Origin: Candidatus Thorarchaeota archaeon | GTDB taxonomy: Archaea; Asgardarchaeota; Thorarchaeia; Thorarchaeales; Thorarchaeaceae | Length of the DNA stretch: 20,323 nt | NCBI GenBank assembly: GCA_003345555.1 | Contig: PRDJ01000005.1 | Coordinates: forward strand, 1 to 20,323 | Direction of reading: 5' to 3' | Shown: in pieces, positions 228 to 5,654 of the stretch | Numbering within the stretch: position 1 is the stretch's first letter | How the letters are laid out: the number at the start of each line of letters is the position of its first letter | Translations under genes and position numbers: made by a program | Notes under the pieces: model-generated | The model's database searches: none | Told to the model about the DNA's origin: nothing | The model's input: only the letters and a program-made list of their open reading frames with translations

Positions 228-581
228 CTACTGCTCGAACAGATCCATGAATACTTCCATCTTCTGCAAATCGGCCATATTGCCCTTGGGCTTGAGCTGG
301 CCGCCCATGAAAGCCTCCATCGGGTCCATTTCGCCGTTGGATATCTTCAGGAAGAGGCCGGAATCTACTGCCAAGCTCATGTCCGGGTTCGCGACGGCGC
401 CGTCCACTAGTTTCGCTTTGCCTGAGCCGTCAAATACCATCTGAACAGGATATTTGAGATCCGTAAACGTCAGCAGGAATATCTTCTTGTACCCCACGAA
501 CTGCCCCGACACATCGGGGTTCTTGTCAAGCAGCTGAATCCACTTTTGCAGTGCGTCCCTAACATCCTTTTTTGTAGCCAA
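228..581 (-). CDS. SCP2 sterol/lipid-binding domain protein (stand-alone)
   Basis: 117 aa, TTG start. C-terminal SCP2 signature DPMEAFMGGQLKPKGNMADL, preceded by the PDMSLAVDS strand. Confidence 0.88.
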   Translation of the reverse strand: MATKKDVRDALQKWIQLLDKNPDVSGQFVGYKKIFLLTFTDLKYPVQMVFDGSGKAKLVDGAVANPDMSLAVDSGLFLKISNGEMDPMEAFMGGQLKPKGNMADLQKMEVFMDLFEQ

Positions 582-676
582 TTGAAAGAACCTTCTTTGT
601 CACGTTGAGCGTCCGAATCCCGCAGGCGAGTATTTAGACTTAACCTGAGGCGGATAATTCCCTGGTCTGCATGTTC

Positions 677-1594
677 TCAGTCCTTGGTTTCATTGTGCGA
701 CTCCTGCCTCACAGATTCCACCATGACTTGCCGTCTCCCGAGAAGGAATGAGCTCGCAACAACTGCGGCTATTCCTGCGAGTAGAAGCGCGAAAGAAAAC
801 TGATCCGGAGGAGCACGAGCAAACACGAAGAGATAGACGAGGGCAGGGACCACCTGAATAGGTACCTGCTGAATCGGAACCAAGATACTGGCCTGGCCTG
901 ACCTGAATGCAGTCTGAAGGGTGCTTATCCCAAATACGTTCGTCAGGACCAAGGTCAGTGCTGCAAATGAGAAGAGCACGAGCTCTGGCAAGACGAAGGT
1001 CCCAGTGAGCACGTGATCTATCGTTCCCATCAAAGGACTGATCCAATAGTTCGAGAGTGCAAACATCACACCTGATGCCAATGCTAATGAAATGGCTTTG
1101 AGTCTGACTGAGTGACGTTCGGTTGCTATGAGCATAACCATGATTGCGAAGAGAACCGTCGTGAAGATCGATATTCGCAATAGGAACCCCGACTCAAGAA
1201 AATCGTATTCTGAAGCTGGAATGACTAAGGAACTGGCTCCAATTAGGACAATGGCCACGATCATGAGTGCTATGCCGGCTGCTTCTGCCGCTCTAATCGA
1301 TTCATGTATTAGCTTTATTGACCCGACGGCCAGAACGACGAGACCTGCGGCCATCAAGCCAGGCACGAGCGCAGGGCCAATGAGGTTTGTCGCTAGCATA
1401 AAGAACACGGTACCCAGCGCGAGCTGAAGAACAAGGCCAAAAATCCACATAGGATTCTTTACCAGGGTCCTCATGAATCTCTGATCCCTTGCTTCTGGAG
1501 GAACTCCGTTTACGACTTTCTTCTGTACTAGTGTGCCGACATTGTTTGCGATTCCGGATGACACGGCAAGCGTGACTCCAAGCAGGTAAGACAT
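677..1594 (-). CDS. DMT-superfamily (EamA/NIPA-like) membrane transporter
   Basis: 305 aa with about 9-10 hydrophobic helices. Motifs include N-terminal GIANNVGTLVQKK, NPMWIFG, and QTAFRSGQASILVP. Confidence 0.8.
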   Translation of the reverse strand: MSYLLGVTLAVSSGIANNVGTLVQKKVVNGVPPEARDQRFMRTLVKNPMWIFGLVLQLALGTVFFMLATNLIGPALVPGLMAAGLVVLAVGSIKLIHESIRAAEAAGIALMIVAIVLIGASSLVIPASEYDFLESGFLLRISIFTTVLFAIMVMLIATERHSVRLKAISLALASGVMFALSNYWISPLMGTIDHVLTGTFVLPELVLFSFAALTLVLTNVFGISTLQTAFRSGQASILVPIQQVPIQVVPALVYLFVFARAPPDQFSFALLLAGIAAVVASSFLLGRRQVMVESVRQESHNETKD

Positions 1595-1627
1595 TGGTCC
1601 GCGCCTTCGATGGGTTCAGACAGAACC

Positions 1628-1646
1628 TATATGGGCGGGATTTAAA
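1628..1646. promoter_or_regulatory. Candidate divergent archaeal TATA boxes: TTTAAA at 1641-1646 for the + operon and TATAT at 1628-1632 for the - strand DMT gene
   Basis: TTTAAA begins 26 nt upstream of ATG 1667, the spacing expected for a leaderless archaeal transcript. A small inverted repeat GGTTC-N5-GAACC lies at 1613-1627. Confidence 0.5.
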
Positions 1647-3659: not shown

Positions 3660-3664
3660 TGAGC

Positions 3665-3672
3665 AAGGAGGT
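3665..3672 (+). promoter_or_regulatory. Shine-Dalgarno AAGGAGGT of the GH5 gene
   Basis: Strong SD consensus ending 11 nt before ATG 3684, in a 24-nt intergenic gap; consistent with an operon. Confidence 0.6.
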
Positions 3673-3683
3673 CTTCTCTGATA

Positions 3684-5654
3684 ATGACTTCACGTCTTAC
3701 AGTATCGAACGGTTGGTTCGTGGATGAGAAAGGACGCAGAGTGCTCCTTCGAGGAGTAAACGTTGGAGGAAGCTCGAAAGTACCTGCAAGACCGAATGGT
3801 GCGACCCACATCAAAACAGATTTTCGTGACCACAGAGACGTGTCCTACATCGGCCGGCCTTTCCCACTCTCCGAGGCCGAGAGTCATCTTAGGAGAATCA
3901 AGCATTGGGGTTTCAACTGCCTTCGTTTTCTCGTGACTTGGGAGGCAATCGAGCACAGGGGCCCTGGGGATTATGATAAGGAGTACCTCGAGTATTTGCA
4001 GGAAATCTTGAAGATTGCAGAAGAGTTCAAGCTGCATGCCTTCATTGATCCTCATCAAGACGTATGGAGTCGAATGTGTGGCGGAGACGGGGCTCCCGGT
4101 TGGACTCTCGAGAAGGTTGGTCTTGACCTCACGAAGTTCGATGCCTCCGAGGCGGCATTCTTGATGCAGCGCCGCTACAATCCCAACGACCCCAAGGCAT
4201 ACCCACCGATGAGCTGGCCGCAGAACAAGACCCGTTTTGCCGCTGCAAATATGTGGACGCTTTTCTTCGGAGGTAAGGACTTTGCACCCTCCTGCTTGGT
4301 TGAGGGGCAAAACGTACAGGACTATCTGCAAGAACACTACTTCAACGCTCTGAAGCAGGTAGCTGCATTTGCCAAGGACATGGATTATGTCTTGGGCTTT
4401 GATACGCTGAATGAACCGGACCAAGGTTGGATTGGGGCCAAGGTTGACGGGTCGAACGTTGACTTGAGTACCGTGATTGGCTACGGTTTCACACCAATGG
4501 ATGCGATGGCAACCGCATCCGGGTTCCCACGGACAGTAGGCTATAGAGAGATCAAGCGCTTCGGAGTGAAGGAAACCCGCAAGGACATCATGAATGCGGC
4601 GAGAGTCTCCGTATGGCTCAAAGGATGCCCGGACATCTGGCGGACTGAGCGCATTTGGGACCTTGAGAGAGACCAGCCACGGATCCTTAACAACGACCAC
4701 TTCATGAAGAGGCGGGGTGTGGAGGTCGACTTTGTAAGAGACTACCTTTCACCCTTCGTCAATCGTGTAGCAAAGGAGATCAGGACCGTGATGCCTCATG
4801 CTATTGTTTTCTACGAAGGCTCTACGGAGAAGACCATCATGGGCCAACCTCTTCGGATAGACGTGCCTCCGAACTCCGTTCATGCCGCCCACTGGTATGA
4901 TGTAGGTACAATCGGGACAAAGAGATTCATGGAAAAGGCAAGCTATGATATCGCGAAAGGAACCACTGTAATCGGACCTGGCAACGTTGCACAGATGTTC
5001 GTGAGGCAGCTGAAGGGGATTGGCGAGGGTACCGCTCAGGTGTCCAGAGGCGTTCCGACTCTCATAGGTGAGTTTGGTCTCTGCTACGACCTTGACCAGA
5101 AGAGTGCATATGGGAAACTGAAGACAGATCCCCTTGAAGCTTGGAAGACTCACGAGAGAGCTCTTTCGAAGTACTATAACGCTCTCGATGCAAGTCTGCT
5201 GAATAGTACGCAATGGGACTACACTTCCGACAATACAAACGAGTGGGGCGATCAATGGAACCTTGAGGACTTCTCGATATTCAGTGTGGACCAACTGAAA
5301 GAGCCCGATGATATCAACAGCGGAGGAAGGGCGATTCGCGGATTCTGTCGTCCTCACTTCATCACCGTTGCGGGCACCCCCACACGGATGAAATTCGACA
5401 TGAGGACTGGGTCGTTCGTGTTTGATTTCGATGCTGATCCGAGCGTTTCCGACGGCACCACCATCTATCTGCCGGATGTGCAGTACCCGGAGGGTTTCAC
5501 CATCAGGCTCTCCGAAGGAAGGCACGAGTACGACAAGAAGGCCCAGGTATTGCATGTATATACTGGGCAGAAGGGTATTCACTCGGTTAGCGTGTCGCGT
5601 GAACACGCGATCGAATTCGGGTGGGAAGAGGACGAAGAGGAAGCGAAGACGTGA
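3684..5654 (+). CDS. Glycoside hydrolase family 5, endoglycoceramidase-related (EGCrP / steryl-beta-glucosidase-like) with C-terminal beta-sandwich; no signal peptide
   Basis: LRGVNVGGSSKVP, WGFNCLRFLVTWEAIEH-GPG-YD, DPHQDVWSR-GGDGAPGW; acid/base GFDTLNEP (Glu244, nt 4413-4415); nucleophile LIGEFG (Glu463, nt 5070-5072); WGDQWNLEDFS; GFCRP followed by a GH5_C-like domain. Confidence 0.88.
   Translation: MTSRLTVSNGWFVDEKGRRVLLRGVNVGGSSKVPARPNGATHIKTDFRDHRDVSYIGRPFPLSEAESHLRRIKHWGFNCLRFLVTWEAIEHRGPGDYDKEYLEYLQEILKIAEEFKLHAFIDPHQDVWSRMCGGDGAPGWTLEKVGLDLTKFDASEAAFLMQRRYNPNDPKAYPPMSWPQNKTRFAAANMWTLFFGGKDFAPSCLVEGQNVQDYLQEHYFNALKQVAAFAKDMDYVLGFDTLNEPDQGWIGAKVDGSNVDLSTVIGYGFTPMDAMATASGFPRTVGYREIKRFGVKETRKDIMNAARVSVWLKGCPDIWRTERIWDLERDQPRILNNDHFMKRRGVEVDFVRDYLSPFVNRVAKEIRTVMPHAIVFYEGSTEKTIMGQPLRIDVPPNSVHAAHWYDVGTIGTKRFMEKASYDIAKGTTVIGPGNVAQMFVRQLKGIGEGTAQVSRGVPTLIGEFGLCYDLDQKSAYGKLKTDPLEAWKTHERALSKYYNALDASLLNSTQWDYTSDNTNEWGDQWNLEDFSIFSVDQLKEPDDINSGGRAIRGFCRPHFITVAGTPTRMKFDMRTGSFVFDFDADPSVSDGTTIYLPDVQYPEGFTIRLSEGRHEYDKKAQVLHVYTGQKGIHSVSVSREHAIEFGWEEDEEEAKT

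Follow-up and report, generated by a model that had tools for sequence, protein, structure and literature searches.

What does a glycosidase built like the sterylglucosidases of fungi do inside an archaeal cell, beside genes for a lipid carrier and a PIG-L deacetylase? The question is raised by one end of a contig from Candidatus Thorarchaeota archaeon (GenBank assembly GCA_003345555.1, contig PRDJ01000005.1). The stretch analyzed here, called the window throughout, consists of the first 20,323 nucleotides (nt) of this contig (positions 1 to 20323), and its left edge is the contig end. A module of six genes lies there, encoding a glycoside hydrolase of family GH5, a PIG-L/LmbE-family deacetylase (PIG-L), a Gfo/Idh/MocA-family oxidoreductase (Gfo), an SCP2-domain lipid-carrier protein (SCP2), a putative membrane transporter of the DMT clan (DMT) and an M24 metallohydrolase (M24). 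A preliminary description, made from the letters of the sequence alone, had proposed that these genes strip head groups from glycolipids inside the cell, either scavenged lipids or the cell's own, with SCP2 shuttling the aglycone. Our results bear out much of what was said there of the glycosidase and its neighborhood, and they shift the proposed role toward catabolism or salvage, a reading that we hold tentatively.

RESULTS

GH5 shares the sugar site and the predicted fold of fungal sterylglucosidases

The GH5 protein of the window combines a family 5 catalytic domain (PF00150, 3.4e-15) with the C-terminal domain PF18564 (3.5e-17). Its top relatives of solved structure in a phmmer search of the PDB were Aspergillus SglA (8exd, 2.2e-95) and Cryptococcus Sgl1 (7lpo, 3.5e-89), with alignments spanning about 540 residues, whereas bacterial endoglycoceramidases reached only about 1e-11. 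The motifs GVNVGGSSKVP and DPHQDVWSR, in which the preliminary description had recognized an EGCrP-like enzyme, are present, and both align to SglA and Sgl1. In Sgl1, the catalytic pair is E270 and E520, glucose is bound by K47, H142, D144, N269, Y453, W570, and E587, and W584 keeps out a second sugar (PMC8497620). All of these residues have counterparts in the window GH5: E244 and E463 correspond to the catalytic pair, K32, H124, D126, N243, Y405, W511, and E528 correspond, in the same order, to the glucose binders, and W525 corresponds to the tryptophan that blocks the second sugar. The SglA residues K33, H125, D127, E247, W540, and E557, listed in PMC10128061, are matched as well. When 20 Asgard copies from eight families were aligned, K32, H124, D126, N243, E244, E463, W511, W525, and E528 were invariant and Y405 was at least 90% conserved; N243-E244-P245 and G462-E463, the signature of a retaining GH5 enzyme of clan GH-A, were invariant too.

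An AlphaFold (AF2) model of GH5 (pLDDT 82, pTM 0.88) was matched by Foldseek to Sgl1 (7lpp) with a TMq of 0.88 and a TMt of 0.80 and to SglA (8exd) with values of 0.85 and 0.84. Because the model superposes on Sgl1 over nearly its full length and reaches a TMq of only 0.52 on endoglycoceramidase (EGCase) II, the sterylglucosidase-type cap over the barrel is, as modeled, retained. None of the Asgard GH5 copies has a signal peptide, since they begin only a few residues before the first conserved strand. These comparisons establish GH5 as a predicted cytoplasmic retaining exo-beta-glucosidase with a complete single-glucose -1 site and a capped sterylglucosidase build. We conclude that it should accept one glucose joined to a non-sugar aglycone, whose nature we infer from the company the gene keeps. 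By sequence, fold, and sugar-site residues alike, the enzyme resembles EGCrP2/Sgl1/Egh1, as had been proposed. Co-folding of GH5 with SCP2 gave a score of 0.25 where the mark is 0.32, which carries no weight for or against binding.

The partner genes stay together across Asgard families

Stretches of about 20 kb around GH5 from 40 genomes were searched with the window proteins, orthologs of PIG-L and SCP2 were sought phylum-wide, and genome counts were made by comparing coordinates by hand. The families of the phylum are numbered here, f1 being that of the window. Genes for DMT, PIG-L, SCP2, M24, Gfo, and GH5 occurred together in f1 and f22 in differing orders and orientations: f1 has two divergent units, as in the window, and f22 has the order DMT>PIG-L>SCP2>M24>Gfo> with GH5 convergent, besides further permutations. 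GH5, PIG-L, and the SCP2 ortholog also recurred together in f11 (genomes G057 and G075). In Loki-type loci, the DMT gene adjoins or overlaps that for PIG-L.

Across the phylum, orthologs of PIG-L and SCP2 were confined to f1, f11, and f22. The PIG-L ortholog was present in about 64 genomes, 57 of which also carry GH5; the 7 without it are 58 to 89% complete. GH5 and PIG-L lie no more than 12 kb apart on one contig in 45 of the 57 genomes, and the SCP2 ortholog lies within 6 kb of PIG-L, usually at less than 1 kb, in 54 of 63. DMT, PIG-L, SCP2, M24, and Gfo form an operon-like unit that co-occurs with and adjoins GH5. That genes of this set have stayed linked in three families despite several rearrangements speaks for a functional coupling. 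The preliminary description had left the conservation of the neighborhood as a point to be checked, and the cluster proved to be kept, with its order shuffled, across distant Asgard lineages. PIG-L, SCP2, and Gfo were absent beside the bacterial GH5 homologs sampled, so that within our sample the operon looks Asgard specific. In two f22 genomes (G225 and G185; loci L043 and L044, 1-19901), the module is doubled within 20 kb; each locus has two copies of GH5, DMT, PIG-L, M24, and Gfo, with genes for SDRs, a racemase, a beta-keto-acid cleavage enzyme (BKACE), and a KDG kinase between the copies.

The partners are a dedicated lipid carrier, a deacetylase, an oxidoreductase, and a probable transporter

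SCP2 matches PF02036 (5.9e-12; 46 bits against a cut-off of 21) over model positions 4 to 100 of 101, and its relatives in the PDB are AF_1534 and the SCP2 domains of MFE-2. Since the genome holds eight open reading frames (ORFs) with SCP2 domains and the orthologs of this one are linked to PIG-L, it is a paralog dedicated to the cluster. PIG-L matches PF02585 (4.7e-18; 66 bits against 28). Among 18 orthologs, H10-P-D12-D13 of its AHPDD motif is at least 90% conserved and H126, D128, and H129 (HxDH) are invariant. Its best PDB matches were the diacetylchitobiose deacetylases (Dac) of Pyrococcus and Thermococcus, at 1e-6.

Gfo carries three domains of its family (PF01408, 9.3e-23; PF22725, 4.6e-26; PF02894, 1.3e-20) and adjoins GH5 in most cluster loci. 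Its best PDB matches were 3q2k (titled only "oxidoreductase"), 1,5-anhydrofructose reductase, and GFOR. Both PIG-L and Gfo stayed below every NCBIfam equivalog cut-off: PIG-L matched BshB1 and BshB2 weakly (27 bits against 182 and 21 against 195; 3e-6), and Gfo scored 142 bits against 355 for iolG, its best NCBIfam match, and 37 against 650 to 750 for the glycoside 3-dehydrogenase models. We also considered Gfo as an NAD-dependent glycosidase of the GH109 type, which is not supported; no GH109 structure was found among the best 60 of 88 PDB matches.

The transporter had been described outright as a DMT protein. Its membership in that clan is likely but weakly shown by sequence: the window protein has no Pfam match below 0.01, and its first half resembles ArnE at 0.0024, far below the cut-off; a Loki ortholog scores 27.0 bits against a gathering threshold of 26.2 for Mg_trans_NIPA, and among the Atlas neighbors 13 to 32% of members bear NIPA or EamA assignments.

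For M24, the family called in the preliminary description is confirmed through an ortholog, but the window itself, which begins at the contig end, holds only an N-terminal stub. The stub has a weak Creatinase_N match and is 83 to 87% identical to the full 380-residue M24 protein of a genome of the same genus, which matches PF00557 (2.8e-24) and PF01321 (1.5e-10), has a Pyrococcus prolidase as its best PDB match (1.5e-26), and misses the PepQ equivalog cut-off (84 against 630). A metal-ligand pattern of the D/D/H/E/E type is conserved in 15 orthologs. The remainder of the gene was not found on the other contigs of the genome, which yielded only the stub and distant paralogs, so that the part upstream of the window is unassembled.

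Layout of the locus and neighboring genes

The ORF list of the window places all six genes of the module exactly where the preliminary description had put them (Table 1), in two divergent units, and the gaps of 72, 49, and 24 nt given there are exact. The strong Shine-Dalgarno sites claimed for the plus strand are borne out in part. GH5 has one, AAGGAGGT, 12 nt upstream, and it is strong and clear for this gene only; PIG-L has instead a TTTAAA box at 1641-1646, about 21 nt before its ATG, which may be a promoter element of the PIG-L unit. The affiliation with Asgard archaea had been judged correctly: the nearest homologs carry the Thorarchaeota label, and the phylum-level genome search returned only Asgard-type relatives.

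Table 1. Features of the module at the left end of the window
Feature	Coordinates	Strand	Basis or remark
M24 metallohydrolase (Creatinase_N + Peptidase_M24), N-terminal 63 residues	3..191	-	contig-end fragment
SCP2-domain lipid-carrier protein, 117 aa	228..581	-	PF02036
DMT-clan (NIPA/EamA-like) membrane transporter, putative, 305 aa	677..1594	-	Loki ortholog and Atlas neighbors
Divergent intergenic region, 72 nt	1595..1666	.	read from sequence
PIG-L / LmbE (CAZy CE14) zinc N-deacetylase, soluble, 267 aa	1667..2470	+	PF02585
Gfo/Idh/MocA NAD(P)-dependent sugar or cyclitol oxidoreductase, 379 aa	2520..3659	+	three Pfam domains
GH5 exo-beta-glucosidase (predicted), sterylglucosidase architecture, cytoplasmic, 656 aa	3684..5654	+	PF00150 + PF18564

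Beyond the module, positions 5696-7812 of the minus strand hold two overlapping ORFs (329 and 376 residues) with no Pfam match and a weak Zn-ribbon-like match. A flavoprotein of the geranylgeranyl-reductase family follows on the plus strand (8042-9442; TIGR02032, 134 bits against a cut-off of 159), 2.4 kb downstream of the module, and then a DUF1846 protein, also on the plus strand (9934-11472; 570 bits against 631). The geranylgeranyl-reductase gene and the two Zn-ribbon ORFs were considered as members of the module and left out because their adjacency to GH5 is not conserved outside the genus. In G333, a genome of the same genus (locus L031), the geranylgeranyl-reductase-family gene matches as two overlapping pieces (6775-8164) and a prolyl oligopeptidase appears as two ORFs, a beta-propeller and a catalytic domain 160 nt apart (16436-18484); frameshifts, pseudogenes, or assembly errors are possible causes.

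The module is part of an extended cluster with a catabolic character

All ORFs of the 40 loci were clustered, and the recurrent families were scanned. The additions that recur are two SDRs, BKACE, a second Gfo paralog, a KDG/KDGal-type PfkB kinase (5e-64; it reaches 530 bits on the kinase portion of a model for fused KDPG aldolase and kinase), and an Asp/Glu racemase scoring above the TIGR00035 cut-off. Three Loki loci have a GH20 beta-N-acetylhexosaminidase directly beside GH5. Other additions, each in a subset of the Loki loci, are an Amidohydro_2 protein, a Pab87-type D-aminopeptidase, and a glycoside symporter of the GPH type, which adjoins GH5 in locus L041. In a genome of the same genus as the window, the gene order runs onward from M24 through an SDR, the split prolyl oligopeptidase, and a second SDR to BKACE; the corresponding genes of the window would lie past the contig end. 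The extended region is catabolic in character, although its peptidases and racemase may belong to a nearby route for peptides or amino acids and not to that for glycosides. The five-gene module of the preliminary description is real in that its genes stay together, but it is only part of this larger and more catabolic cluster.

GH5 occurs in other company as well

In other Asgard lineages, GH5 is also found alone or without the PIG-L partners. In f17 and in one genus of f22, it stands between a prokaryotic ketohexokinase and a protein of the fucose-isomerase family, with a sulfatase or an MFS transporter nearby; sugar kinases flanking GH5 suggest that the released sugar is used as food. In f14, GH5 lies among two MFS transporters, a KASIII-like gene, a YfiT-like DinB protein, a FadD-like acyl-CoA ligase, and an alpha/beta-hydrolase. 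In one f11 genome (G070, L051:8021-11427), a DinB gene and GH5 are followed by a DGGGP-synthase-like UbiA prenyltransferase gene that overlaps GH5 by 8 nt. The YfiT-like DinB (152.5 bits against a cut-off of 160) is beside GH5 in both f11 and f14 (loci L047 to L049, L065, and L066).

Bacterial and fused relatives point in a similar direction as the f14 loci. In Leptospira wolffii (L074:7113-9902), a patatin-like lipase gene ends 6 nt before GH5, with an MFS transporter upstream, and on a Gram-negative contig (L080:8001-11869), a carboxylesterase gene lies 15 nt downstream of GH5 and is followed by an acyl-CoA ligase. GH5 is fused to an alpha/beta-hydrolase in P0124 (47% identical to the window GH5) and to a type-B carboxylesterase in P0223. 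Because the esterase fused in P0223 is the one encoded separately 15 nt downstream in L080, GH5 and the esterase can be regarded as a split/fused pair. That GH5 so repeatedly accompanies esterases, lipases, and acyl-CoA ligases is the best indirect sign that many members of the family act on acylated or lipid-linked glucosides, and it points to such substrates.

GH5 forms an Asgard clade with a patchy distribution and a history of transfer

The GH5 family comprises 582 clusters at 50% identity with E values below 1e-30. A FastTree phylogeny of 157 sequences was built, in which yeast Egh1 is the sole named fungal group, Sgl1, SglA, and EGCrP1 being outside the set; most cluster representatives are unnamed metagenome proteins, and much of the tree is unlabeled. 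Asgard copies fell into a single clade (support, 0.976) whose neighbors are long stramenopile proteins of the Hondaea type (joint support, 0.775) and then a clade of Chloroflexota and other bacteria (0.953). Sequences named as yeast ergosteryl-beta-glucosidase (Egh1) are on a far branch. A place inside the EGCrP/Egh1 clade, on which the preliminary description had counted, is contradicted as far as this tree goes: GH5 lies outside the clade of yeast Egh1, which alone represents the named fungal groups here. A subclade of the "Asgard" clade (families f17 and f23) holds at least one bacterial member, recognized as such because its contig bears a TonB-dependent receptor, and the history of GH5 includes, as judged from the tree, transfer between domains. 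The label "eukaryote-like" given to the system fits the resemblance of fold and logic and does not extend to shared descent, since nothing points to vertical eukaryote-like ancestry. Subfamily GH5_12 consists of a fungal clade and a bacteria-dominated clade (PMC3526467), and the Asgard clade would sit beside the latter.

GH5 was found in 109 of 400 genomes of the phylum, with 9 of 85 in f1, 62 of 135 in f22, and 15 of 19 in f14. This patchiness, with so few copies in the family of the window, fits an accessory nutrient trait better than core lipid recycling. The window query did not find GH5 in two closed Loki-type genomes of f21 (G135 and G138, single contigs of 4.4 and 6.0 Mb), which hold only distant PIG-L paralogs of 38 to 39% identity. 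Two further observations concern individual GH5 matches. Some f22 matches have one or two TAA or TAG codons "inside"; all of them extend to query position 641 or later, stop-free f22 matches end at about 638 to 640. The window protein exceeds most f22 copies by about 15 residues, and the pattern suggests matches that run on past the true stop, not recoding. P0343, a 911-residue GH5 that NCBI labels "Asgard group archaeon," shares 44% identity with a yeast Egh1-type protein and falls within the Candida group of the tree; the 102-kb contig that carries it is probably fungal and misbinned into an Asgard metagenome-assembled genome.

The source sequence is present in wetland metagenomes of two studies, and no RNA run was found among the listed public runs that carry it. 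A wetland habitat would be rich in plant and microbial glucolipids, which is circumstantial only.

DISCUSSION

Our results suggest that the cluster serves to break down or salvage amphiphilic beta-glucosides or glycolipids inside the cell, a reading to which we give a probability of about 45%. A lipid-like aglycone is suggested because the SCP2 protein is dedicated to the cluster and because relatives of GH5 are fused to or lie beside esterases, lipases, and acyl-CoA ligases. The catabolic side of the reading follows from the recurrence of KDG kinase, BKACE, SDRs, racemase, GH20, GPH symporter, and Amidohydro_2 genes and from the patchy distribution. Of the original proposal of glycolipid head-group stripping, the EGCrP-like GH5 and the conserved neighborhood stand and a lipid-like aglycone remains plausible, while the system appears more catabolic than was described.

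We infer the following order of steps, together with the substrate and the roles of SCP2, DMT, and M24. A glycoside would enter the membrane or be taken up and would be moved inward by DMT or, in some loci, by an MFS transporter of the GPH type. The dedicated SCP2 protein would keep the hydrophobic part soluble, giving soluble enzymes access to the head group. PIG-L might then take an N-acetyl or N-acyl group off an aminosugar, with M24 cutting a further amide bond, and sugars would be removed by GH5 and, in some Loki loci, also by GH20. Finally, Gfo, the SDRs, KDG kinase, and BKACE (elsewhere, ketohexokinase and the isomerase) would pass the sugars to central metabolism. Candidate substrates are steryl and acyl-steryl glucosides, glucosylceramide-like lipids, and glycosyl glycerolipids; archaeal glycolipids of the isoprenoid kind are also candidates, as are further hydrophobic glucosides of plant or microbial origin in wetland detritus.

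Several points weigh against this reading. We know of no enzyme activity or ligand for any protein of the cluster. DMT transporters normally carry small solutes, not lipids, and the nearest solved relatives of PIG-L act on soluble diacetylchitobiose. M24, the racemase, and BKACE may serve an adjacent peptide or amino-acid pathway. One GH5 of the bacterial clade closest to the Asgard copies has ABC permeases, GH42, GH31, and an FGGY kinase around it, a typical locus for soluble sugars. The loop with W525 and E528 is of low confidence in the GH5 model. Mapped by hand, the pocket residues of Sgl1 correspond to Met (L431), Ile (L458), Thr (L290, in a loop and uncertain), and a deletion (A470); with two of these four positions hydrophobic, the sequence is too weak a basis for deciding whether the pocket is hydrophobic. 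The genomes compared are related and not independent, and the genome counts given above overstate the number of independent observations.

A bolder form of the same idea would have the cluster flip, extract, and strip membrane glycolipids, whether scavenged or the cell's own, with DMT as a flippase, SCP2 as a chaperone, PIG-L, the Sgl1-like glucosidase, and GH20 as the stripping enzymes, and Gfo acting with them. We consider this version unlikely. If it were true, the cluster would be a prokaryotic counterpart of the activator-protein-assisted degradation of glycolipids in eukaryotes, combined with the PIG-L step of glycosylphosphatidylinositol (GPI)-like processing.

Among the alternatives, catabolism of soluble sugar or aminosugar glycosides survives best, although we regard it as rather doubtful. 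An imported beta-linked oligosaccharide of GlcNAc and Glc, or a small glycoside (chito-oligosaccharides or fragments of glycans or cell walls), would be deacetylated by PIG-L, a CE14 enzyme, cleaved by GH20 and by GH5 in the role of an unspecialized exo-beta-glycosidase of the cytoplasm, oxidized by Gfo, and led by a sugar-acid path to KDG kinase, with SCP2 incidental or binding something else. The kinship of PIG-L with archaeal diacetylchitobiose deacetylases fits well here, as do GH20 directly beside GH5 in three Loki loci, the GPH symporter beside GH5 in L041, the ketohexokinase and isomerase flanking GH5 in other lineages, and the soluble-sugar locus of the close bacterial relative. So does the recurrence in the cluster of the KDG/KDGal-kinase-type PfkB protein, the second Gfo, and Amidohydro_2, a family that takes in sugar lactonases; the logic of a deacetylase, a sugar acid, and KDG resembles the oxidized-chitin catabolism of marine bacteria. 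However, a soluble substrate leaves unexplained the dedicated SCP2 that lies by PIG-L in 54 of 63 genomes, and GH5 keeps, according to the model, a capped single-sugar architecture instead of an open cleft. The fusion and adjacency of GH5 relatives with esterases, lipases, and acyl-CoA ligases are likewise at odds with it, and the loci showed neither a chitinase nor NagA/NagB nor a glucosaminate deaminase.

It is improbable, in our judgment, that the cluster remodels or builds the cell's own membrane glycolipids in a GPI-like or Arn-like manner, the alternative closest to the own-lipid reading of the preliminary description. PIG-L would here deacetylate a GlcNAc-archaeal lipid presented by SCP2 (for example, GlcNAc-archaetidylinositol), DMT would flip the resulting GlcN-lipid, and GH5 would trim or transfer glucose on monoglucosyl lipids. 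Such a role would agree with the family membership and intact zinc motifs of PIG-L, with the tight linkage of SCP2 to PIG-L, and with the adjacent or overlapping DMT and PIG-L genes of Loki-type loci; an inositol head group would be in keeping with the iolG-like scores of the two Gfo paralogs. The first half of DMT is weakly similar (0.0024) to ArnE, a subunit of a flippase for lipid-linked aminosugars, but the match is far below the cut-off. Similarly, the geranylgeranyl-reductase-family gene downstream of the module would fit lipid synthesis, but its adjacency is not conserved outside the genus, whereas the overlap of GH5 with a DGGGP-synthase-like prenyltransferase gene in f11 counts in favor. 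No glycosyltransferase was found in any version of the cluster. The distribution is patchy and accessory, GH5 not being found with the window query in most f1 genomes, and whole modules are duplicated in some genomes; links to KDG kinase, BKACE, racemase, GH20, and, elsewhere, ketohexokinase look catabolic.

Two other explanations appear very improbable to us. In the first, low-molecular-weight thiol conjugates of the mycothiol or bacillithiol style would be handled by PIG-L as a conjugate amidase, exported by DMT, trimmed by M24, and their sugar or cyclitol recycled by Gfo and GH5. The weak BshB1 and BshB2 matches of PIG-L and the YfiT-like DinB beside GH5 in f11 and f14 speak for it, and DMT proteins are typically exporters. 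Known thiols of this kind, however, carry alpha-linked GlcN, whereas GH5 is a predicted beta-retaining enzyme with a glucose-type site; DinB accompanies copies of GH5 that lack the PIG-L operon, not the cluster itself, and we know of no such thiol in Asgard archaea. In the second, the genes share no pathway and are held together by inherited synteny or by island-wise transfer of unrelated catabolic genes, as the mixture of sugar, peptide, and amino-acid genes in the extended region (prolyl oligopeptidase, Pab87-type D-aminopeptidase, and racemase), the occurrence of GH5 without these partners in many lineages, and the relatedness of genomes within a family might suggest; yet the same orthologs keep together from family to family in differing orders and orientations, those of PIG-L, SCP2, and GH5 agree in phyletic pattern, and gene pairs overlap or almost touch. 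Catabolism of peptidoglycan fragments, hinted at by GH20, the Pab87-type D-aminopeptidase, the racemase, and M24, was rejected as the main reading, as the GH5 site is of the glucose type and no MurNAc enzymes are present.

Several known systems are comparable to the cluster. Fungal Sgl1 (EGCrP2), SglA, and Egh1, of subfamily GH5_12, share with GH5 of the window a TIM barrel with a large cap and the C-terminal beta-sandwich PF18564, and the likeness to Sgl1 and SglA extends to the catalytic Glu pair, the glucose binders, the sugar-blocking Trp, and an intracellular location without a signal peptide. Unlike Sgl1 and SglA, the Asgard enzymes are 120 to 140 residues shorter, with about 30% identity over the structural alignment, and they form a separate clade, far from that of yeast Egh1 in the tree, and are encoded in a prokaryotic operon with PIG-L, SCP2, DMT, M24, and Gfo. 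No sterol synthesis is known in Asgard archaea (PMC12139934). The Rhodococcus enzymes EGCase I and II (GH5_28 and GH5_29) also have the GH5 barrel, the same C-terminal domain, and a related layout of the sugar site; these enzymes are secreted, act as endo-enzymes, and receive oligosaccharide head groups in an open site, whereas Asgard GH5 is, in the model, capped and has a single-sugar block.

The chitin pathway of the Thermococcales consists of Dac and the exo-beta-glucosaminidase GlmA, which is GH35-like, and likewise pairs a PIG-L/CE14 deacetylase with a cytoplasmic exo-beta-glycosidase in an archaeon. The similarity of PIG-L to Dac is only about 1e-6, however, and the glycosidase here is a GH5 enzyme with a glucose-type site, not a GH35-like GlmA; no chitinase, ABC importer, or GlcN-6-P deaminase was seen in our loci, and SCP2, DMT, M24, and Gfo are found instead. 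In GPI synthesis, PIG-L (the GlcNAc-PI de-N-acetylase) acts before GlcN-PI is flipped, and ArnD, ArnE, and ArnF follow the same deacetylate-then-flip logic for a lipid-linked aminosugar. The adjoining or overlapping genes for a PIG-L-family deacetylase and a DMT-clan transporter recall both systems. Asgard PIG-L differs in being soluble and in having no linked GPI glycosyltransferases, and ArnD comes from a different deacetylase family. Ubiquinone synthesis offers another parallel, in which small SCP2 proteins (UbiJ and UbiT) are encoded together with soluble enzymes whose isoprenoid substrate is embedded in the membrane; the likeness drawn here is one of SCP2 fold, and the pathway is different.

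A literature search found no paper on a sterylglucosidase-like GH5 of Asgard archaea or on the cluster, and Asgard GH5 enzymes appear in the literature only as CAZyme counts or as "cellulase." What is new is the lineage in which this known enzyme architecture is found, together with its conserved set of partners. A lipid-handling reading is also timely, because a preprint that describes an Asgard START protein transferring sterols also points out the occurrence of SCP2 proteins in archaea (PMC12139934).

The capped fold occurs widely among Asgard archaea, its sugar site unchanged, and is encoded in a conserved operon with a lipid carrier and a PIG-L protein. Sterylglucosidases of this architecture are treated in the mycology literature as fungus-specific drug targets; if the bolder reading holds, this "fungus-specific" fold would be an ancient tool for lipid glucosides common to the archaeal relatives of eukaryotes. 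With only six proteins, soluble or in the membrane, the cluster lends itself to expression and assay. Even with a soluble substrate, the finding sets right the metabolic reconstructions of Asgard archaea, which routinely label these enzymes cellulases. If its substrate is lipidic, the cluster would be the first predicted cytoplasmic route for handling glycolipids in the archaeal relatives of eukaryotes and would bear on lipid trafficking, sterol-like ligands, and membrane remodeling in eukaryogenesis, as well as on how archaea of sediments and wetlands feed on or recycle membrane debris.

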